A stretch of 64,000 nt of DNA, from positions 16,769 through 80,768 of the forward strand of contig JACQKQ010000012.1 of assembly GCA_016204465.1 (NCBI GenBank), read 5' to 3'. Positions 2,824-39,724 of the stretch are shown here, piece after piece. The translations under genes and the position numbers were made by a program. The first letter of the stretch is position 1; the number at the start of each line of letters is the position of its first letter. The stretch comes from Candidatus Levyibacteriota bacterium. Its GTDB lineage: Bacteria; Patescibacteriota; Microgenomatia; Levybacterales; UBA12049. The notes under the pieces are model-generated. The model searched no databases, was not told the DNA's origin, and saw only the letters and a list, made by a program, of their open reading frames with translations.

Positions 2824-3294
2824 ATGCCGACTTTGTCACAACTTGCAAAAAGAGGAAGAAAGAAAAAAATCAAGAAAAGTAGGTCAACTGGTTTGCGTCG
2901 TATATATAATGCGCGTGAGAGAAGCTATAAAACACATCTCTCACCACAAAAGCGTGGAGTTGTTACTTTGGTTAAGACAATGACCCCAAGAAAACCAAAC
3001 TCAGCCCTTCGAAAAGTTGCTCGGGTTAAGCTTTCCAATCGGACTGAAGTCACCGCATACATCCAAGGTATTGGTCACTCGCTTGCAGAGCACGGTATTG
3101 TTTTGGTCCGCGGCGGTAGGGTGAAAGATCTTCCCGGTGTAAAATACCACATTGTACGGGGAAAGTTTGATTTAATGGGCGTAGAGTCCAGGCGTACTTC
3201 TCGAAGCAAATATGGCACGAAGAAAGGAGAAAAAGGCGCGCGGGTAATAACTGGTGCAACTCCCAAATCGGCAGAGGCTCAACCTAGCGTTTAG
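2824..3294 (+). CDS. rpsL: 30S ribosomal protein S12 (with C-terminal extension)
   Basis: MPTLSQL...PQKRGV...[17 protein letters not shown]...[17 protein letters not shown] is the canonical S12 core. About 18 extra C-terminal residues. Confidence 0.95.
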
Positions 3295-3302
3295 TTTCAA
3301 AT

Positions 3303-3776
3303 ATGAGACACAAGAAAGTATCGGCACGAATTGTTGCTTTAGATAAGGTTTACAATAACCGTTTGGTTACAAAGTTTATTAACCGACTCATGCGAGACGG
3401 GAAAAAATCAGCTGCGCAGAGCGTTTTTTACGGTGCCTTTGCTATTTTAGATCAAAAACAGCAAAAACCTTTGGAGGTTTTTGAAAAAGCTGTGCAAAAC
3501 GTTGGACCAAAAACAGAGGTGAAGGCGCGGCGTGTGGGCGGTGCGTCGTACCAGGTGCCACAAGAAGTCCGTGCAGACAGACGAGTATCTTTGGCAATTC
3601 GATGGATTATTCAAGCCGCACGGGATCGTTCAAGCAAAGAATATCACACGTTTGCCGAGAAATTATCTGCAGAGTTCTTGGATGCAAGTCAAAACCAGGG
3701 AGCAGCTATTAAAAAGCGCGACACCGTGCATCGAATGGCAGAAGCCAATAGGGCATTTTCTCACTTCCGTTGGTAA
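3303..3776 (+). CDS. rpsG: 30S ribosomal protein S7
   Basis: 157 aa with GGASYQVPQEVR and NRAFSHFRW, S7 hallmarks. Lies immediately after rpsL. Confidence 0.95.
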   Translation: MRHKKVSARIVALDKVYNNRLVTKFINRLMRDGKKSAAQSVFYGAFAILDQKQQKPLEVFEKAVQNVGPKTEVKARRVGGASYQVPQEVRADRRVSLAIRWIIQAARDRSSKEYHTFAEKLSAEFLDASQNQGAAIKKRDTVHRMAEANRAFSHFRW

Positions 3777-32546: not shown

Positions 32547-33380
32547 CTATTTCTCGATCAGTTTTTTATTTTGTGGTTCGGTCAGGTAGTTTTTTCTTGT
32601 TGAGACTTTCTTACCGGATTCCTTTTCGAGCTTCTGTCTTGCTTCTCCGGCAATTCTGCCCCCTTTTTGCGCAGCAGTTTTATTTTCTGTAAATCCTTTT
32701 GTATTTCTATTTCTGGTAATTTCCGTAGTAGATGCTTCCCCAAGCATAGAGAAAATCAATTCCAAATCATTCATGTGATCTCGTAGATTTTCTCTTTTTA
32801 ATTTCTTGAACTTTTTATATTGGCTTGGGGTCATCCCAAAAGTAGCTTTGGAAATTTCAGCAGTTAAAATGGCATATTCTCTATCTCCACCAACATCTCT
32901 ATTTTTCCATTCGTTGGTTAGCTGTTCTCTAACTTGGATACCTCGCATTCTTTTTTCAATCCAATCATCAGAATATCCTTTGGCTTTGTACAAAGCTCTT
33001 GTCCTTTTGGTGGCTAGTTCCGGGTCTTCTATTTCCTGTATCCTTTCATAACCAACTCTTGCTAACCATCGTTTAAATGGTTCTGCTTTAGGAGATGGAA
33101 TAGTTTGGATAATTCGAAATATAGTTTCAGTATTAGCACAATCTGTTTCTCTTAACTTTCCGTCAGGAGCTTCTAATTTCAACTGTCCGATTTTTTCGGA
33201 CACTTCAGCGTAACCTTCTTTGACAAGCTTTTTCTTTAAGTCATTCCAGTACTTTCGGGGTCTATCGGTTTCGGTTAATACCTCAACAACATCAATAACT
33301 GAAAACCACCATTCGCTTTTGTATATGATTTTTCTGATTCCCTTGCCTTTGAAGACTGCAATTTTGGTAGTTTCTTCCAT
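32547..33380 (-). CDS. Bro-N domain protein (DinD-like / phage antirepressor-like)
   Basis: The N-terminal IRKIIYKSEWWFSVIDVVEVL pattern is typical of Bro-N. The helical Lys/Arg-rich C-terminal half resembles proteins annotated as DNA-damage-inducible protein D. Confidence 0.7.
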   Translation of the reverse strand: MEETTKIAVFKGKGIRKIIYKSEWWFSVIDVVEVLTETDRPRKYWNDLKKKLVKEGYAEVSEKIGQLKLEAPDGKLRETDCANTETIFRIIQTIPSPKAEPFKRWLARVGYERIQEIEDPELATKRTRALYKAKGYSDDWIEKRMRGIQVREQLTNEWKNRDVGGDREYAILTAEISKATFGMTPSQYKKFKKLKRENLRDHMNDLELIFSMLGEASTTEITRNRNTKGFTENKTAAQKGGRIAGEARQKLEKESGKKVSTRKNYLTEPQNKKLIEK

Positions 33381-33477
33381 GCCTTAATTTGTATCAGGTT
33401 TTGTCATTCTTTGCAATTAAAATTTTCGTATTAGCGTTGTAGCATAGTACAACGATAGAAGGGTACAATGATAAAAT

Positions 33478-33661
33478 TTAGAATGGTAATAAGTCAGAGG
33501 CTGAAACTTTTAGTGCTTTTGCAATTTTATAAAGGTTCTGATAGTTGGATTTCTTTTTCCTCTTTCAATAAACCTAACCTTCCATCCGCTTCGCGGATTC
33601 ACTTTCTGTCGAGTTATATCGAAAAATTCGAACTCGTTTTCTCTCTAATTAATCGACGCAT
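33478..33661 (-). pseudogene. Frameshifted XRE-family helix-turn-helix regulator remnant
   Basis: Minus-strand hand translation gives MRRLIREK in one frame, FIERGKRNPTIRTFIKL in a second, and AKALKVSASDLLPF-stop in a third. Together these form an XRE HTH signature broken by two frameshifts. Confidence 0.6.
33584..33598. repeat. GC hairpin ATCCGC-TTC-GCGGAT (inside the HTH pseudogene)
   Basis: Perfect 6-bp inverted repeat. Related hairpins: GGCCGC-TTT-GCGGCC near 33679-33693 and TTCTGC-GAA-GCAGAA at 35937-35951. Confidence 0.7.
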
Positions 33662-33752
33662 CGTATCGTTCTCCGCTCGGCCGCTTTGCGGCCTCGCTCT
33701 ATGCATTTTTTGCAAAGACAGAAGACAAGTGCGCGAGATTTTTATTATTATA

Positions 33753-33769
33753 GTCCGCCTTTGGCGGAC
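33753..33769. repeat. GC hairpin GTCCGCC-TTT-GGCGGAC
   Basis: Perfect 7-bp inverted repeat. The same arms recur at 63929-63944, and a degenerate copy lies at 26105-26120. Confidence 0.75.
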
Positions 33770-33822
33770 AGAAATACAAAAACAATTTAATGTTTTCTTT
33801 GCCCACCCCCTTCCCAGGAGTT

Positions 33823-33845
33823 TACCCTGAGTTTACCGAAGGGCG
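33823..33845 (+). repeat. CTGAG-N5-CGAAG hairpin repeat, copy a
   Basis: TACCCTGAGTTTACCGAAGGGCG. Shares its loop and flank consensus with copies at 35793 and 35845. Confidence 0.65.
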
Positions 33846-33982
33846 AAAACTTATTACTCCCTTATTATACAGAAAATTTAGAAAGGGTCAAAGCAATCGG
33901 CCAAAATGGTGGAAACTGGCTAATTTTACTAAAACTTCTTTATTGAGAATATGGTAAACCATATTGATGTATACTAAAATTA

Positions 33983-35449
33983 ATGACTAAATGGCCTTTA
34001 ATATTGGCAGTGCTTTTTGCTTGTTTACAAATTGCACCCGTAATGCTTATCTTCTCGTTCCTAATTGGAGTGGCACATTTTGGATTTGTAAGCGGATCAG
34101 TTGCGACTCCTCTAAGTTGGATTAGTTATTTCATATTTACAGTTCCGGCAATGGTGGCTTTTGCCGCATATCGAATTAGAGCTGTTGTTCAAAAAAGAAC
34201 AGATCGTAATCTCACTATAGAACAATCCCTGGTAGTAGTTTTACCAGCAATAGTTAGCATTCATATAGCAGAAGCGATCATTACTTTATACCAATTTGGA
34301 GATGATACTACTACATTTATTACAGCTTTATTATTTGCAATATTATCTACCATAATTCTCACTTATTTATTAAGCAACCCCTCCACCAGAGAAGTATTCT
34401 GGCCTACTCCTATTGCCCAGAATATAAAGAAGATTAGAATTTGGATTACAGTAATTACTCTTTTTCTTCTATGTGCTTCTTTTCCTGCTCAAATCTGGCT
34501 TACTGAGTATTCCTACTATATTGGTATTACTAGTCTTCCTCCTAGTAAGTTATTTCCAATATTTCCAATATTACTACTACCATTTTTTGTATTTTTTGCA
34601 AAATATTTAGCTACTAAATTGGCTGAACGAAACCTCAAAGCTTTGTTGTTGACAACGGTAATCGTAGTTATTTTAAGTTTAATAACTGCTGGCTCTTTGG
34701 CTATTCTTTTACCAAAGGATATACCTCAAGAGCTTTCTGAAATTGCAGATAAACATTTTATAAGTGGTAATTACGATAAAGCAATCGCAAGATATGAGCG
34801 AATACTAAAAGAATATCCTGACTTTGCTAAAAAGAACCCTAATATTCAATCTCGTCTTGGTCTAAGCTATTTAGCTGAAGCCCAGCCATATATAGATGCG
34901 TATAACAATGGTAAGGGAGATATCTATTTTGACTTATCAACAGAATTTCTCAATAAGGCAATTAGTATCTATCCTCAGAATTTAAAAGCTTACATTGAAT
35001 TGGGAGTTGTGTACAGTGAACACGGCGATAAATCTCTAGCGATAGAGACTTATAGAAAAGGGTTGGAGTTGGATCTTTCTTCAAAAGATCCTAAAGATGT
35101 AGGCATGATCTATGAAAACTTTGGGTTGGCTTATTACGATACTAACCAGTTAGATAATGCTATTGATTCTTTTAGAAAAGCAATACAATATGATCCAAAA
35201 CAGCAAACAATCTATATCAATTTGGGAGCCACTTATGACAAGAAAAAAATGTTTGATGAATCAATAAAACAATACACGATAGCATTACAGATAAATCCGA
35301 ATGATGCTTTGGCTCACAATAACTTGGGCTATGCGCTTGCCCAAAAAGGAAATATAAATGATTCAATTGCAGAATTTAATAAAGCATTGGAAATTGATCC
35401 TAACTTAAAAATTGCCAAAGAAAATCTGGGGCGTTATAAGAACAAGTAG
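33983..35449 (+). CDS. Polytopic membrane protein with C-terminal TPR repeats
   Basis: About 230 aa of TM helices, then at least 5 TPR-like repeats (GNYDKAIARYERILK..., AYIELGVVY..., LAHNNLGYALAQKGN...). Confidence 0.75.
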   Translation: MTKWPLILAVLFACLQIAPVMLIFSFLIGVAHFGFVSGSVATPLSWISYFIFTVPAMVAFAAYRIRAVVQKRTDRNLTIEQSLVVVLPAIVSIHIAEAIITLYQFGDDTTTFITALLFAILSTIILTYLLSNPSTREVFWPTPIAQNIKKIRIWITVITLFLLCASFPAQIWLTEYSYYIGITSLPPSKLFPIFPILLLPFFVFFAKYLATKLAERNLKALLLTTVIVVILSLITAGSLAILLPKDIPQELSEIADKHFISGNYDKAIARYERILKEYPDFAKKNPNIQSRLGLSYLAEAQPYIDAYNNGKGDIYFDLSTEFLNKAISIYPQNLKAYIELGVVYSEHGDKSLAIETYRKGLELDLSSKDPKDVGMIYENFGLAYYDTNQLDNAIDSFRKAIQYDPKQQTIYINLGATYDKKKMFDESIKQYTIALQINPNDALAHNNLGYALAQKGNINDSIAEFNKALEIDPNLKIAKENLGRYKNK

Positions 35450-35493
35450 TTATTAATTAAAGTTCTTTAAAATTTTTGCGTTTGGGGTATATT

Positions 35494-35748
35494 CTATAAA
35501 ATTGGCTTGCCGAATTTGATAAGGTTTTCTTTCTTTTCTCTGCGCCAGCCCTTAATTTGTTTCTCGCGTCTTCTAGCTTCCAAAAGGGTAGAAAAATGTT
35601 CTGAGTAAACAAGGACGAACGTTTTGTTTCGTTTTGTAAACTCTGCCCCGTCTCCTCTTTGATGTCTTGAAATGCGTTTATTAAAATTGTTCGTTACTCC
35701 AACATAAAGATGGTTTTTGGGGCCACGAAAGAAATAAACAGTAAACAT
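35494..35748 (-). CDS. GIY-YIG nuclease superfamily protein (small UPF0213/YhbQ-like)
   Basis: FTVYFFRGPKNHLYVGVTNNFNKRISRH...EARRREKQIKGWRREKK is a GIY-YIG core. Confidence 0.85.
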   Translation of the reverse strand: MFTVYFFRGPKNHLYVGVTNNFNKRISRHQRGDGAEFTKRNKTFVLVYSEHFSTLLEARRREKQIKGWRREKKENLIKFGKPIL

Positions 35749-35792
35749 TTTTTTGCCCTTCAGTAGACTCACCTTTCGATTTTACTCAAGGT

Positions 35793-35815
35793 GATCCTGA
35801 GTCCATCGAAGGATC
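35793..35815 (+). repeat. CTGAG-N5-CGAAG hairpin repeat, copy b
   Basis: GATCCT-GAGTCCATCGA-AGGATC with a 6-bp stem. Confidence 0.75.
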
Positions 35816-35844
35816 AGGGCTCTTCGTCTGCGCATATCGTCGGA

Positions 35845-35867
35845 GACTCTGAGCTTGTCGAAGAGTC
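35845..35867 (+). repeat. CTGAG-N5-CGAAG hairpin repeat, copy c (abuts the tRNA-Pro 3' end)
   Basis: GACTCT-GAGCTTGTCGA-AGAGTC. The stem differs from copy b by two compensatory base-pair changes. Confidence 0.75.
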
Positions 35868-35936
35868 GGGATGCCGTGAATCGAACACGGACTACCGCAC
35901 CCCCAGCGCGGCGTACTACCACTATACTACATCCCG
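35866..35936 (-). tRNA. tRNA-Pro (anticodon GGG)
   Basis: Hand-folded minus strand: CGGGATG TA GTAT AGTGGTA GTAC G CCGCG CTGGGGG TGCGG TAGT CCGTG TTCGATT CACGG CATCCCG A. The acceptor stem pairs perfectly (7 bp), the T-loop is TTCGATT, and no CCA is encoded. Confidence 0.9.
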
Positions 35937-35967
35937 TTCTGCGAAGCAGAATAATTAAAACTGACCC

Positions 35968-35995
35968 TTGCATTATAGCAGAAAGGTGTTACAAT
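35968..35995 (+). promoter_or_regulatory. Putative promoter for recA
   Basis: TTGCAT (35968-35973), a 16-nt spacer ending TGt, and TACAAT (35990-35995). AAAGGAG SD sequence before the ATG at 36016. Confidence 0.45.
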
Positions 35996-37107: not shown

Positions 37108-37307
37108 GTCTTAAAATTTCGTATATTTCCTCTTGATCTATTCGATTTCATTCAGGTCATAGACTCTGAGGTCTGACGACCTCGTCGCTCAGACTCGCAG
37201 AGATCAATACTGAATGAAATTGAAGTATTGACACCCAACTATATAGTCAGTTAAGATAATTTCAATTAACAAGAGAGGGCAATGGATGCCTGTTTCCTAA
37301 ATTGTAT

Positions 37308-38903
37308 ATGCCAACAATTATGCAACAGACAAAACAACTCTTAACAATCAAAGAAGCCAGTCGTTGGGCGAGCGGCTTTCTCAAGAAGGATGTTAGCGAC
37401 TCCAATATCTCCTATTTGGTGCAATACGGAAAAATTAAAAAGCACAACTGGAATAATTCAGTTTTTATTGATGTAAATGATCTCAAGAATTATTATGACT
37501 CATATCGAGGCCAGCGAGAGGTGAACTGGAAAAAGCGGCTTGGTAATGATTTGAACTGGCTATTGTCTTTTGATCATTTGCGCGAGAAGGACACAACTAA
37601 GCATGTCCACAGGCTTCACCCATACAAAGGAAAATTTATTCCGCAACTTGTCGAGTATTTTATTGATAGCCACACTGACGATTTCAAAACAAGTGCGTAT
37701 TTCAAAACAGGCGATATTATTCTTGATCCTTTTTCCGGCTCCGGCACAACACTTGTGCAAGCTCATGAAATAGGAATACATTCCATCGGGATTGATGTCT
37801 CTCGCTTCAATTGCATGATTACGGAAATAAAGTTGTTGAATTATGACATGGGCGCGCTTGAGGAAGAAATCAAAAGAATAAAAAATGCAATTATAAACCA
37901 CGAAGCAGATAGCAAAACTACTGTGTTTGAGCGCGAGCTATTAGAGTGCTTGGCTGATTTTAATAATCAATATTTTCCAAGCCCGTCATTCAAATACAAC
38001 GTGCTACAAGGACACAGCAACGAAAGTAAATATGTCGAAGAAAAGGAAAAAGAATTTCTCAAAATCTACAATAATCTTGTCAAAAAATACGAAATTGAAC
38101 TAAACCATTCTACCGGCAAAACCTTTTTGGAAAAATGGTTTATCAGAAATGTTCGAAAAGAGATTGATTTTGCCTTTGAACAAGTCAAGACAATAAAGGA
38201 TGTAAAAAATAAGAAAATCATTGCAGTAATTTTGAGCCGCACTATTAGATCGTGTCGTGCAACTACTCATTCGGATTTAGCGACGCTAAAAGAGCCACAA
38301 TTGACTACTTATTATTGCTGGAAACACAAAAAAATCTGTAAGCCGCTTTTTTCTATCAAGACATGGTTTGATCGCTATGCGAGTGATACAGTTTATCGGC
38401 TCAAAACTTTTGCGCGACTTAAAACGAGTACTCACTATTCAGTTATTCCTGCTGACTCCCGAACAGTTAATATTTTCAAAGAAGTTGAGAGGCGAAATAA
38501 ACGGTTTCACGAAATACTGCAAAAACAAAAGATACGGGGAATTTTCACTTCGCCACCGTATGTCGGGCAAATTGATTATCACGAGCAACATGCTTACGCA
38601 TACGACCTCTTTGGTTTTGAACGTCGAGATGAGTTTGAAATTGGGCCGTTATATAAAGGGCAGGGTGCAGAAGCACGCGCGTCTTATGTTGATGGCATTT
38701 CAAAAGTTTTACTCAATTGTAAAAAGTTTTTGGCGGATAATTTTGATATATTTCTTGTGGCAAACGACAAGTATAACCTTTATCCCGCAATTGCCGAACA
38801 ATCTGGAATGAAAATAATCAATCAGTTTAAGCGGCCAGTACTAAACAGAACCGAAAGGGACAAATCTCCTTATTCGGAAATAATTTTTCATTTGAAGGGA
38901 TAA
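37308..38903 (+). CDS. Type II DNA methyltransferase (N6-adenine or N4-cytosine; SAM motif precedes SPPY)
   Basis: HPYKGKFIPQLV...ILDPFSGSGTT (motif I region, residues ~105-150) and FTSPPY (motif IV, residue ~417). Possible N-terminal HTH. An alternative TTG start lies at 37302. Confidence 0.85.
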   Translation: MPTIMQQTKQLLTIKEASRWASGFLKKDVSDSNISYLVQYGKIKKHNWNNSVFIDVNDLKNYYDSYRGQREVNWKKRLGNDLNWLLSFDHLREKDTTKHVHRLHPYKGKFIPQLVEYFIDSHTDDFKTSAYFKTGDIILDPFSGSGTTLVQAHEIGIHSIGIDVSRFNCMITEIKLLNYDMGALEEEIKRIKNAIINHEADSKTTVFERELLECLADFNNQYFPSPSFKYNVLQGHSNESKYVEEKEKEFLKIYNNLVKKYEIELNHSTGKTFLEKWFIRNVRKEIDFAFEQVKTIKDVKNKKIIAVILSRTIRSCRATTHSDLATLKEPQLTTYYCWKHKKICKPLFSIKTWFDRYASDTVYRLKTFARLKTSTHYSVIPADSRTVNIFKEVERRNKRFHEILQKQKIRGIFTSPPYVGQIDYHEQHAYAYDLFGFERRDEFEIGPLYKGQGAEARASYVDGISKVLLNCKKFLADNFDIFLVANDKYNLYPAIAEQSGMKIINQFKRPVLNRTERDKSPYSEIIFHLKG

Positions 38904-38908
38904 GAATC

Positions 38909-39724
38909 ATGAGTTTACCCCAAGAAAAAAAAGAAAGGATATCAGAGGTTATTAAAACCATCCTTGTTTCAAGGATAGATAACTTTCCGGAACTAAATCA
39001 TCAAAATAGAAATGCGCCATTTCATGATTTAATTCTAGAGGCGTTCGAGAAGCAGCTGAAACCAATAAATGTACCTACGCCCTACTTAGTCGCAATAGCA
39101 AGTTGGATGCATGGTTTAAACACCTCGCTAGGTAGTGGATTTGAATCTTTAGCACATATTTTATCTGGAGGATATAAAAGAAATTTTACCCAAAAATTCA
39201 CGTTAAAAGTTAAAAAATCTCAAGCTGAAAATATAGGGAACATAATTGTGGAGTTAAAAAGCGGAATAAAACCTGCAACACAACGAGAAAATGAAGCCAT
39301 ATTTAAATTTAACAAGGGAGAAACGGAAGTAAATGCACTGGAGTTTACAGTAGACAATTATATTGAGACAGCAAATCTAATCGAGGGGATAGAATTGAAG
39401 TCGGTTAGACCAAACTCTGGCGAAGGGAGAGGAGAGAAGCAAAAAATATTATATGCAAAAGCTGCTTTTAAATTATTACACCCTGAAAAAGAAATCAAAT
39501 ATTATATTGGGTTTCCATTTGATCCAACTTCAAAAACAGCAATTGGATATGATAAAGAAAGATTCTTTAATTATTTAGTAGAATTTAAAAAATTCTTCAC
39601 CTTTAATGAAGTTTTATTATCATCAGAATTATGGGATCATCTATCAGAGCAGAAAAATACAATGGAAGAAATTTTTGAGATTATAAGCAAAACTATCGAG
39701 GTAGTAAAAGCCTCTAATTCATAA
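38909..39724 (+). CDS. Putative type II restriction endonuclease (PD-(D/E)xK-like; possibly TdeIII-like)
   Basis: Starts 5 nt after the methyltransferase stop. VDNYIETANLIEGIELKS gives a D-x12-E-x-K arrangement. The family assignment is from memory only. Confidence 0.5.
   Translation: MSLPQEKKERISEVIKTILVSRIDNFPELNHQNRNAPFHDLILEAFEKQLKPINVPTPYLVAIASWMHGLNTSLGSGFESLAHILSGGYKRNFTQKFTLKVKKSQAENIGNIIVELKSGIKPATQRENEAIFKFNKGETEVNALEFTVDNYIETANLIEGIELKSVRPNSGEGRGEKQKILYAKAAFKLLHPEKEIKYYIGFPFDPTSKTAIGYDKERFFNYLVEFKKFFTFNEVLLSSELWDHLSEQKNTMEEIFEIISKTIEVVKASNS

Follow-up and report, generated by a model that had tools for sequence, protein, structure and literature searches.

A GIY-YIG nuclease gene and its hairpin repeats behind tRNA-Pro in Candidatus Levybacteria: a probable relative of the Ssn nuclease modules

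Introduction

In a 64-kb stretch of a contig from Candidatus Levybacteria (JACQKQ010000012.1), a lineage of the Candidate Phyla Radiation (CPR), a tRNA-Pro(GGG) gene, several short hairpins and a gene for a small GIY-YIG nuclease follow one another on the same strand. The stretch as a whole is called the window here. The arrangement raises the question of whether these elements belong together and, if they do, what ties the nuclease to the hairpins and both of them to the tRNA. A preceding sequence-only reading of the window had proposed that the hairpins might be recognition sites of the nuclease, 3'-processing or terminator elements of the tRNA, or repeats mobilised in trans by the nuclease, and had considered the association to be uncharacterised. 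The analysis described here indicates that the locus is probably a compact cassette, composed of a CPR relative of the Ssn nucleases and its own hairpin repeats, which is lodged directly 3' of tRNA-Pro(GGG).

An association of this kind is not without precedent, since it was published for the Ssn family in 2025. Chenal et al. (Nat Commun 2025, PMC11893778) defined Ssn as small GIY-YIG nucleases that are flanked by cognate hairpin repeats. The 94-aa SsnA protein of Neisseria meningitidis (CDD cd10448) binds the repeat CGTCATTCCCGCGMAVGCGGGAATCYRG and cleaves upstream of it, acting only on single-stranded DNA (ssDNA) and on one strand only, with no action on double-stranded DNA (dsDNA) or RNA (PMC11893778). 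Three further homologues, each acting on its own repeat, cut ssDNA specifically nearby, which brings the number of members paired with a repeat to four; repeats are present in the flanks of 71% of the homologue genes and on both sides in 42% (PMC11893778). The repeat-gene-repeat layout was likened to insertion sequences (IS) and to the RAYT/REP systems (REP, repetitive extragenic palindrome), the IS nature being hypothesised only, and the roles of Ssn outside Neisseria were described as still to be elucidated; Patescibacteria, Bacteroidota and tRNA are not mentioned in that paper (PMC11893778).

Results

The tRNA-Pro gene, the hairpins and the nuclease gene are one unit

The tRNA-Pro gene, the hairpins and the small nuclease gene form one genuine unit. 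All are co-oriented on the minus strand, in the order TGCTATAAT, tRNA-Pro, hairpin c, a 25-nt spacer, GCCCTGA, hairpin b, hairpin a, GTCTACTGAAGGGC, AAAAAA and the ATG at 35748 (Table 1), and the features on which the first reading had based its order and co-orientation were each located where it had placed them. Hairpin c is the tRNA-side repeat, named D in the following, and the gene-proximal repeat, named P, is the one in which hairpins b and a are embedded. The motif CTGAGN5CGAAG has three exact matches in the 64 kb, all on the plus strand, compared with ~0.1 expected from the base counts; with one mismatch allowed, 5 matches were found versus 2.3 expected. The whole window was also scanned, with filters off, using a covariance model based on 55 family hairpins. 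At E<=1e-4 it matched only at 35844-35868, 35792-35816 and 33822-33846, and a fourth match at 35769-35794 (minus strand) had an E value of 1.8. The number of exact matches, together with the specificity of the model scan, rules out chance as the origin of the motif. Comparison with Rfam gave tRNA as the only family passing the gathering threshold in the whole window and no credible match at E<=10 between 35400 and 36100; on 40 related loci the hairpins are covered by no Rfam family.

The hairpins accompany the nuclease gene in related genomes

Relatives were collected as 80 loci from species-representative genomes, 46 of them CPR-like and 34 surrounding more distant homologues. When a family hairpin is counted as GAG-N4-6-CGA with at least five Watson-Crick pairs, its density in the CPR-like loci is 3.33 per kb in the interval from -250 to +150 nt of the open reading frame (ORF) and 0.025 per kb elsewhere. 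This corresponds to a 133-fold enrichment (60 versus 7 hairpins, binomial p 2e-65), and thus bears out the suspicion that the hairpin and the GIY-YIG gene are widely associated, as well as the test of co-occurrence across loci that had been suggested. The earlier remark that FDKLR-like peptides stand at the N-termini of spurious hypothetical proteins and near small GIY-YIG genes also has a simple basis. There are hundreds of CPR homologues with 70-85% identity, and the N-terminal extensions that many of the homologues were annotated with (SPEPVEG, PEFTEG, TFRQAQ and ALSLSKG, also PELVEG, LSLSKG and FRQAQ) are translated hairpins; ~16 of 50 extended cluster representatives (<=50% identity) likewise show them. 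The spurious ORF 35782..35973 containing LFDKLRV is present in the window as claimed.

The relatives share a constant plan, which consists of the 3' end of a stable RNA, D, a spacer, P, 5-30 nt and the ATG. The stable RNA shares its last 2-4 bases with the 5' arm of D, the spacer starts with T.CGAC and ends with G.CGAA plus three bases complementary to the 5' arm of D, and P has the form stem, GAG-YTTRY-CGA, stem; one hairpin is also found downstream of the gene. In 28 of the 46 CPR-like loci a co-oriented tRNA-Pro with anticodon GGG, TGG or CGG (ARAGORN) lies 48-245 nt upstream of the gene, and three further loci have a visible tRNA 3' end though no tRNA was called. A tmRNA takes the place of the tRNA in six loci (Rfam) and a tRNA-Leu in one, the stem there being adapted to the CCA that these genes encode (CCAT/ATGG). 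Behind three nuclease-free tRNA-Pro genes (L131, L155 and L158) no hairpin was found and the trailers are unrelated; this indicates that the hairpin is part of the cassette rather than of the tRNA.

In the 34 more distant loci, which come from Bacteroidota, Parcubacteria and others, the sequence GTCATYYCGA..GAGAAATC is typically found 60-80 nt upstream and GATTTCTC..TCGRRATGAC 18-30 nt downstream, and these genes thus lie within an inverted repeat. The 10-mers GTCATYYCGA/TCGRRATGAC occur 125 times in these loci versus ~2 expected, and 79 of them are located within 200 nt of the ORF. The motif shifts with the clade of the nuclease, being GAG..CGA in the CPR, GTCATTTCGA in Bacteroidota and CGTCATTCCC in Neisseria. 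Bracketing of the gene by repeats is clear in the distant homologues; in the window both units are upstream and there are four copies per 64 kb.

Two further groups of loci were observed in these comparisons. A Parcubacteria-type clade with ~50% identity (L156, L157, L158, L161, L164 and L166, and L165 by sequence) carries the gene 100-170 nt behind tmRNA (ssrA), and its first hairpin takes the encoded CCA into the stem (CCAT..ATGG). CPR-type cassettes of tRNA-Pro and GIY-YIG gene with 54-76% identity are also present in metagenome-assembled genomes labelled 'uncultured Gammaproteobacteria bacterium' (L125, L136, L137, L144, L149, L150, L153 and L159), whose taxonomy may be mis-assigned.

The nuclease resembles Ssn proteins

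The 84-aa protein is 100% identical to a 'GIY-YIG nuclease family protein' of Candidatus Levybacteria in GenBank. The Pfam GIY-YIG domain covers residues 2-75 and no further domain is present; Y5, Y15, R25, H29 and E62 are invariant among 20 clade members, and the best matches in the PDB are 1zg2 (BH0048) and 1ywl (EF2693). The protein shares 37% identity with SsnA of Neisseria gonorrhoeae (pairwise E 8e-14), with a score of 47 bits that probably falls short of the published database-wide cutoff of E<1e-10. A profile of the CPR clade gives 52-60 bits to four Ssn-type proteins versus 43 bits to YhbQ of Escherichia coli, a member of the UPF0213 / bacterial Slx1-like proteins (YhbQ, BH0048 and EF2693) that have the same minimal GIY-YIG fold as the window protein. 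Unlike the present gene, yhbQ of E. coli has a tight housekeeping context and no flanking repeats. In general terms, Ssn repeats are defined as directional hairpins of 20-50 nt that flank the gene and share a conserved 5' head; such hairpins are found at this locus. Judging from these sequence features, it is probable that the locus works like Ssn and encodes a divergent Ssn member.

A homing endonuclease of the I-TevI / Seg type was also considered and rejected, because the protein consists of the catalytic domain only and lacks a C-terminal DNA-binding domain; the NCBIfam model for group I intron endonucleases gave 17.8 bits versus a cutoff of 56.

The hairpins are directional and appear to be constrained as DNA

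The stems of the hairpins covary, with up to four pair types per position, although it should be noted that the hairpins had been preselected for at least four Watson-Crick pairs, so the percentage of paired positions is high by construction. The stems of the CPR set comprise 364 Watson-Crick pairs, one G-T and one A-C, and G-U occurs once among 275 cells. Structured RNAs normally tolerate G-U pairs. Because such pairs are nearly absent here, the constraint appears to act on DNA rather than on RNA structure. The sequence-only reading had taken two compensatory base-pair swaps between the stems of b and c as a sign of selection on structure; the swaps are real and the covariation holds, while the near absence of G-U argues that the selected structure is one of DNA, not of RNA. 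The asymmetry between G-T and A-C as a test for the transcribed strand was uninformative, the stems being almost purely Watson-Crick.

The hairpins also have a direction. With the loop read as GAG..CGA, a 5' head of the form G.CG.A abuts the stem; of 68 hairpins, 36 have it within 10 nt on the upstream side and one has it on the downstream side. Examples are agtcgaa-GACTCT and gtcgaagg-GAGCT, and in the window cgtcgga-GACTCT and gacgaaga-GCCCT. This directionality parallels the HGTC head of the published Ssn repeat. Read on the plus strand, D is an oriented unit in which the tag CGTCGGA is followed by GACTCT-GAGCTTGTCGA-AGAGTC, and D on the plus strand and P on the minus strand form a head-to-head pair between tRNA and gene. 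The first reading had hairpin c start at the discriminator base of the tRNA; the hairpin is where it was said to be, but it begins at G72, one base ahead of discriminator A73, and so overlaps both G72 and A73.

The spacer between the two repeats contains matching sequences. Its 5' end, TCCGAC, is the reverse complement of GTCGGA in the tag of D, and the tag of P, GACGAAGAG (35828..35820), forms its 3' end and is complementary at 8 of 9 positions to CTCTTCGAC (35865..35857). This complementarity of the 5' arm of D with the distal segment is specific for each locus (own 7.56 versus cross 6.82 of 9, permutation p 0.0005), and it follows from the repeated head-plus-stem sequence.

P is interrupted by a twin-hairpin insertion

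P has been split by the insertion of a pair of hairpins, and its 3' loop half has decayed (CTGA in place of TCGA). An intact P, GCCCTGAGTTTAYCGAAGGGC, is present in L201, L127 and L203, and the intact unit of L201 bears the head GACGAAGA. The inserted twin is composed of hairpin b, TGATCCT-TCGATGGACTC-AGGATCA (35816..35792, minus strand), and hairpin a, TCACCTT-GAGTAAAATCGA-AAGGTGA (35794..35769, minus strand), which has the opposite loop orientation and had gone unlisted before; it sits inside the older P, between GCCCTGA and the decayed right half. The twin is absent from the closest relatives, which are L201 (85% protein identity, with a near-identical tRNA-Pro that differs by one base), L203 (80%) and L127 (73%). 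It is found at the same point in the more distant L139 (65%) and L142 (64%), there inside P hairpins with other stems. This distribution is out of step with the relatedness of the proteins, and thus fits site-specific insertion or precise loss. Hairpins b and c can therefore no longer be regarded as equivalent units, as they had been, since b belongs to an inserted twin that the closest relative lacks.

Hairpins of the b type occur in 78 metagenome loci and in many unrelated contexts, nearly always with a hairpin of opposite orientation directly behind them (adjacency 16:1). From this pattern, the twin is best regarded as a small dispersed element in its own right. The 15-nt core, CTGAGCTTGTCGAAG, was also observed in viral contigs (L001-L120, e.g. 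L053, L101, L001, L073 and L050), where it lies inside a G+C-rich hairpin, CCGTTCGNN-CTGAGCTTGTCGAAG-NNCGAACGG, that often has an inverted partner, GGTTCGACAAGCTCACCACGAACGG, across a variable spacer; there is no GIY-YIG gene nearby and no Rfam family. This hairpin is the source of spurious peptides of the 'PFALSLSKGE / VRQAHHER' type. Only 3 of the 120 viral 15-mer loci have a tRNA within 600 nt. A literature search for the hairpin strings and peptides, CTGAGCTTGTCGAAG and GTCATTTCGA included, found no relevant description.

Comparative signs of mobility and decay

Direct repeats of 17 nt, derived from tRNA ends, surround the cassette in L128 and a second GIY-YIG gene in L203, and a repeat of ~110 nt does so in L147. 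Partial copies of the tRNA 3' end lie ahead of D in L135, L141 and L151. Tandem duplications of 22-55 nt are present in L121, L123, L134 and L199 at the junction between D and the spacer, where GTC meets T.CGAC, which suggests that this junction is a recurrent break or slippage point. The gene has become a pseudogene in L150, L185 and L195, and L152 contains tandem or fragmentary copies. Taken together with the twin indel, these observations indicate that the cassette is or was mobile. The gene-less left-right pairs in L182 and L197 still have the leader's start and the tail's end, and look like internal deletions of a gene-bearing element. Whereas the downstream genes vary between loci, the cassette of ~400 bp is constant. 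On plasmid AZO_p3 of Azospirillum lipoferum 4B (L287, 254918-256378), the GIY-YIG gene is located between sufB and sufC with head-to-head pairs of the CGTC type on both sides. The second GIY-YIG gene of L203 (98-600, minus strand; 88 aa) is divergent and is situated 2 kb from the tRNA-Pro-linked one, which lies between a 17-nt copy of the 5' end of tRNA-Gln (anticodon TTG) and the complete tRNA.

In the window, no duplicate of the tRNA 3' end was found, the sequence having a single occurrence. A third, weaker copy of the hairpin had been read ~2 kb away; it is a solitary family hairpin at 33822-33846, without a GTCG tag. The half-motif GACTCTGAG noted at 37162 is present as well, and belongs to an imperfect palindrome of 35 nt. 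The palindrome, probably a relic, looks like pieces of the D/spacer module (..GGTCTGACGAC..); its resemblance to L130 and L137 was judged by eye. The hairpin that relatives have between the stop codon and the 3'-flank motif is absent. The system of the window looks partly eroded, with a split P whose CGA is mutated, a missing downstream hairpin, one distant copy (33822) and one relic.

Variants of the 3'-flank motif are present in L121, L123, L125, L129 and L154. The motif, (C)GCAAAAATTTT(A)AAGAAC, was observed 15-120 nt past the stop codon of the GIY-YIG gene in loci with differing downstream genes. It probably marks the right edge of the cassette, and may alternatively be a protein-binding or termination signal.

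Expression

The CCA end is not encoded in the tRNA-Pro(GGG) gene of the window. Upstream of this gene, TGCTATAAT resembles an extended -10 element; it went unreported in a consensus promoter scan, having no matching -35 element, and is the likely promoter of the tRNA and, via read-through, of the nuclease gene. A scan of the minus strand from the tRNA to the ATG found no promoter-like or terminator-like site. The cassette is thus probably transcribed by read-through from the promoter of the tRNA, that is, of the stable RNA.

Features of the locus and its neighbourhood

Table 1. Positions of the cassette components and related elements in the window
Feature	Coordinates	Strand	Basis
Extended -10-like promoter element, TGCTATAAT	35972..35980	-	Read from the sequence; ~36 nt upstream of the tRNA
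tRNA-Pro(GGG)	35866..35936 (ARAGORN start 35865/35866)	-	ARAGORN; Rfam RF00005, 60 bits
Repeat D (hairpin c), GACTCT-TCGACAAGCTC-AGAGTC	35845..35867	-	Covariance model, 34.8 bits
D-P spacer, TCCGACGATATGCGCAGACGAAGAG	35820..35844	-	Sequence and relatives
Repeat P (gene-proximal), GCCCTGA^GTCTACTGAAGGGC	35755..35820	-	Alignment with L201, L127 and L203
Twin insertion b + a, 45 nt	35769..35813	-	Indel in alignment with relatives; TGA on both sides
Single-domain GIY-YIG gene, 84 aa, Ssn-like / UPF0213-related	ATG 35748, stop 35494	-	Pfam PF01541, E 2e-16
3'-flank motif, GCAAAAATTTTAAAGAAC	35462..35479	-	Recurs after the gene in L202, L203 and L141
Solitary family hairpin, CCCT-GAGTTTACCGA-AGGG	33822..33846	+	Covariance model, 26.5 bits, E 1e-4
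Imperfect 35-nt palindrome, GACTCTGAGGTCTGACGACCTCGTCGCTCAGACTC	37162..37196	+	Directly after recA

Around the cassette, the window contains ribosomal-protein genes, rpoA, recA, a restriction-modification (R-M) system and other non-recombinase genes; a Pfam search detected no integrase or recombinase among the 14 larger flanking ORFs. A Bro-N gene (32547-33380, minus strand) lies 2 kb from the cassette with a TPR gene between them, and in L203 a Bro-N gene (2852-3766) directly follows the cassette, which may reflect a common ancestral neighbourhood or a small island. The intergenic region of 600 bp between the Bro-N and TPR genes (33380-33983) contains G+C-rich mini-hairpins with three-base loops, GGCCGCAAAGCGGCC, ATCCGCGAAGCGGAT and GTCCGCCAAAGGCGGAC, and also the solitary hairpin at 33822-33846; the best Rfam E value is 0.34. 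Between recA and the RNase Y region, the R-M pair (37302-39724, plus strand) encodes a DNA methylase (PF01555) and a TdeIII-type restriction endonuclease (PF09520). In the syntenic L202, recA is directly followed by recX and RNase Y without this pair, so that in the window it looks like an insertion. The 35-nt palindrome is located at the recA-side junction of the R-M pair.

Discussion

The core association between nuclease and hairpins is already known, having been published for the Ssn family. What is new here is the CPR lineage, a repeat motif that the published pattern misses, the anchoring at tRNA-Pro and tmRNA, the nested twin elements and the comparative evidence for mobility. The locus has in common with Ssn a single-domain GIY-YIG protein of ~90 aa, a gene flanked by short inverted-repeat hairpins, directional repeats with a conserved 5' head containing GTC, head-to-head pairs, and copies away from the gene. 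It differs in that the GAG-N5-CGA loop/stem motif with a GTCGAA head escapes the published pattern, and, compared with Ssn as published, in its CPR host, in the anchoring at the 3' ends of tRNA-Pro and tmRNA and in the small number of local repeat copies. On balance it is probable, though by no means certain, that the cassette combines an Ssn-like nuclease with its own repeats.

Other known systems share only some of these properties. Di Nocera et al. 2013 (PMC3733652) described CGTC-tagged REPs, including dRS3 of Neisseria and RPE-4/6 of Rickettsia, which 'apparently lack a dedicated transposase'. Homologous genes for comparison, from A. lipoferum, Sinorhizobium meliloti, Novosphingobium aromaticivorans and N. 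gonorrhoeae, were obtained by a tblastn search of plasmid and megaplasmid records with one family member. CGTC-tagged hairpins flank the gene in N. gonorrhoeae, A. lipoferum and N. aromaticivorans, and A. lipoferum, N. aromaticivorans and Neisseria generally are named hosts of CGTC REPs (PMC3733652); in S. meliloti the flanks are composite palindromic repeats with no clear CGTC tag. The CPR units and the CGTC-tagged REPs are both short palindromes with an unpaired 5' tag ending in GTC, occur mostly as head-to-head dimers, and have no tyrosine transposase. The CPR units, however, have 5-6-bp stems and an 11-nt loop bracketed by G.A/A.G, whereas CGTC REPs have 8-9-bp stems and 4-5-nt loops, and the tag is GTCG.A in the former and CGTC then AT in the latter; the equivalence with the repeat families of that paper rests on its text, not on the sequences in its figures.

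With the REP/REPIN-RAYT systems the locus shares a single nuclease gene bracketed by hairpin repeats on which it presumably acts, inverted doublets, an ssDNA-hairpin substrate, and signs of domestication or vertical persistence. Unlike RAYT, which is an HUH/Y1 transposase with a covalent intermediate, the present protein is a GIY-YIG hydrolase, and there is no GTAG tag. The only gene of the unit encodes the GIY-YIG protein, so an IS200-like Y1 (HUH) transposase is not part of it, and we know of no strand-transfer chemistry for GIY-YIG enzymes. A new GIY-YIG analogue of RAYT/REPIN, as a category of its own, was considered and is superseded by the published Ssn family. SegB of phage T4 is encoded by a free-standing GIY-YIG homing endonuclease gene in a tRNA cluster, and such genes resemble the present one in their position among or behind tRNA genes, in presence/absence polymorphism and in selfish-gene decay. 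Seg and I-TevI-type enzymes have a C-terminal DNA-binding domain, cut dsDNA, and their genes are not embedded in hairpin repeats; in contrast, the window protein is a bare catalytic domain and its gene is embedded in such repeats.

By analogy with SsnA of N. meningitidis, the 84-aa protein would bind D and P only as ssDNA or in extruded form, a state that could arise in replication, transformation, repair or by cruciform extrusion. The nick that it would then make should fall at the GTCG tag or close to it, a few nucleotides 5' of the stem. The gene-plus-repeat module behaves like a selfish mobile unit that, in the CPR, colonised the 3' ends of tRNA-Pro, of tmRNA and occasionally of other tRNAs, where expression is probably provided by read-through from the promoter of the stable RNA. 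The earlier idea that the hairpins are recognition sites fits the published Ssn biochemistry, while the idea of hairpins mobilised by the nuclease fits it less directly.

A more far-reaching proposal is that the Ssn-like cassettes of the CPR are active mobile elements and not domesticated genes. A nick at the GTCG tag would drive the copying of ~400 bp into the 3' ends of tRNA-Pro, tmRNA or other tRNAs, a duplication of ~17 nt would keep the RNA gene intact, and the tag-less twins and gene-less pairs would be non-autonomous derivatives. This proposal is tentative, and in our estimation it is possible but rather doubtful.

The main alternative is that the hairpins function as RNA, in a leader or in processing. 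In this case they would be a 5' untranslated structure in a co-transcript of tRNA-Pro and the GIY-YIG gene, in which CTCTTCGAC pairs with GACGAAGAG after the RNase Z cut at the discriminator; the structure would protect the mRNA or gate its translation, and P would sequester the ribosome-binding region. This alternative draws on the fact that all elements are found between the tRNA and the ATG, on the coding strand, and are not separated by any promoter or terminator, that the locus-specific long-range complementarity begins at the first base past the discriminator, that P stands at a near-fixed distance of 5-30 nt from the ATG, and that the fold of the leader RNA has a z-score of -2.76. However, G-U pairs are virtually absent, the tag is strand-specific and that of D is on the antisense strand, and the hairpins occur in either orientation, also behind the gene and in unrelated settings. 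In addition, the characterised Ssn members are inactive on RNA (PMC11893778), and the long-range pairing is broken in L201. We therefore consider an RNA leader unlikely.

According to another explanation, the hairpins are independent REP-like repeats, that is, dispersed palindromes kept by some other factor, which accumulate near the gene because it is a tolerant or attractive spot and which are no substrate of the nuclease. The 15-mer core and the b-type twin are indeed found widely at sites with no GIY-YIG gene in the vicinity, hairpin loops serve as insertion points for twins, and the window holds very few copies. The 133-fold enrichment by the gene with fixed positions and orientations across phyla, the change of the motif variants along with the nuclease clade, and the biochemical pairing of nuclease and repeat for four family members (PMC11893778) argue against it and make this explanation improbable.

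It is very improbable that the unit is the scar of an integrase island, namely the attL edge of a larger element integrated at the 3' end of tRNA-Pro via a tyrosine integrase, with the hairpins associated with the att site. The location at tRNA and tmRNA 3' ends, the direct repeats of tRNA ends in L128 and L147, and the Bro-N gene nearby in the window and in L203 would suit such an origin, but the 14 larger flanking ORFs searched with Pfam include no integrase, the tRNA end is not duplicated in the window, and it is the ~400-bp cassette that stays constant while the downstream genes differ between loci. Finally, the view that hairpin c is a terminator or 3'-processing signal of tRNA-Pro, as the sequence-only reading had also suggested, with the nuclease gene as an unrelated neighbour, is hardly tenable and was rejected: although the hairpin overlaps the tRNA end in the window and in every tRNA-Pro-linked relative, it has behind it no T-run of the kind that follows the G+C-rich hairpin of an intrinsic terminator, no terminator-like site was found, the nuclease-free tRNA-Pro genes have unrelated trailers without it, and the module also stands behind tmRNA and tRNA-Leu with its stem adapted to CCA.

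Several observations weigh against an Ssn-like cassette that acts on its own repeats. The published SRM pattern, HGTCWYN(0-2)YYVSBRHN(0-5)WNVSBRGN(0-2)RNCYNB, matches nothing in the window and, across the 46 and the 34 loci, nothing within 300 nt of the gene, while it matches controls from Neisseria (6) and Azospirillum (4). YhbQ of E. coli (31% identity, E 7e-13) is nearly as close to the protein as SsnA is. Only four hairpins are present in the 64 kb, and amplification throughout the genome is not evident here; hairpins b and a and the copy at 33822 are without the tag, and, with P decayed, part of the local system may no longer function. The distal segment of L201 is mismatched to the 5' arm of D, which disrupts their long-range pairing. 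Most hairpins of the wider family lie away from any such gene: a homologous nuclease gene is present anywhere in only 3 of the 78 metagenome loci with b-type hairpins, and no GIY-YIG gene was found near the 15-mer core in 1.1 Mb of viral contigs by single-sequence and profile searches.

Conclusions

If the reading of the cassette as a divergent Ssn member is correct, the Ssn-like system extends into the CPR/Patescibacteria and, with another motif, into Bacteroidota, and the repeat repertoire of the family is broader than reported. The translation of the hairpins explains a common annotation artefact, namely 'hypothetical' and GIY-YIG proteins that carry peptides such as PELVEG, LSLSKG, FDKLR and FRQAQ at their N-termini. 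The tie to the 3' ends of tRNA-Pro and tmRNA provides a concrete, testable target and a route of expression, and comparative evidence in favour of mobility comes from the indels, the duplicated tRNA ends, the pseudogenes and the deletion derivatives. Each new pair of nuclease and hairpin is also a candidate reagent for site-specific cutting of ssDNA. If active mobility were to prove true, these cassettes would provide direct comparative evidence for the IS-like nature of Ssn modules, and would be the smallest autonomous bacterial mobile element with a defined target.

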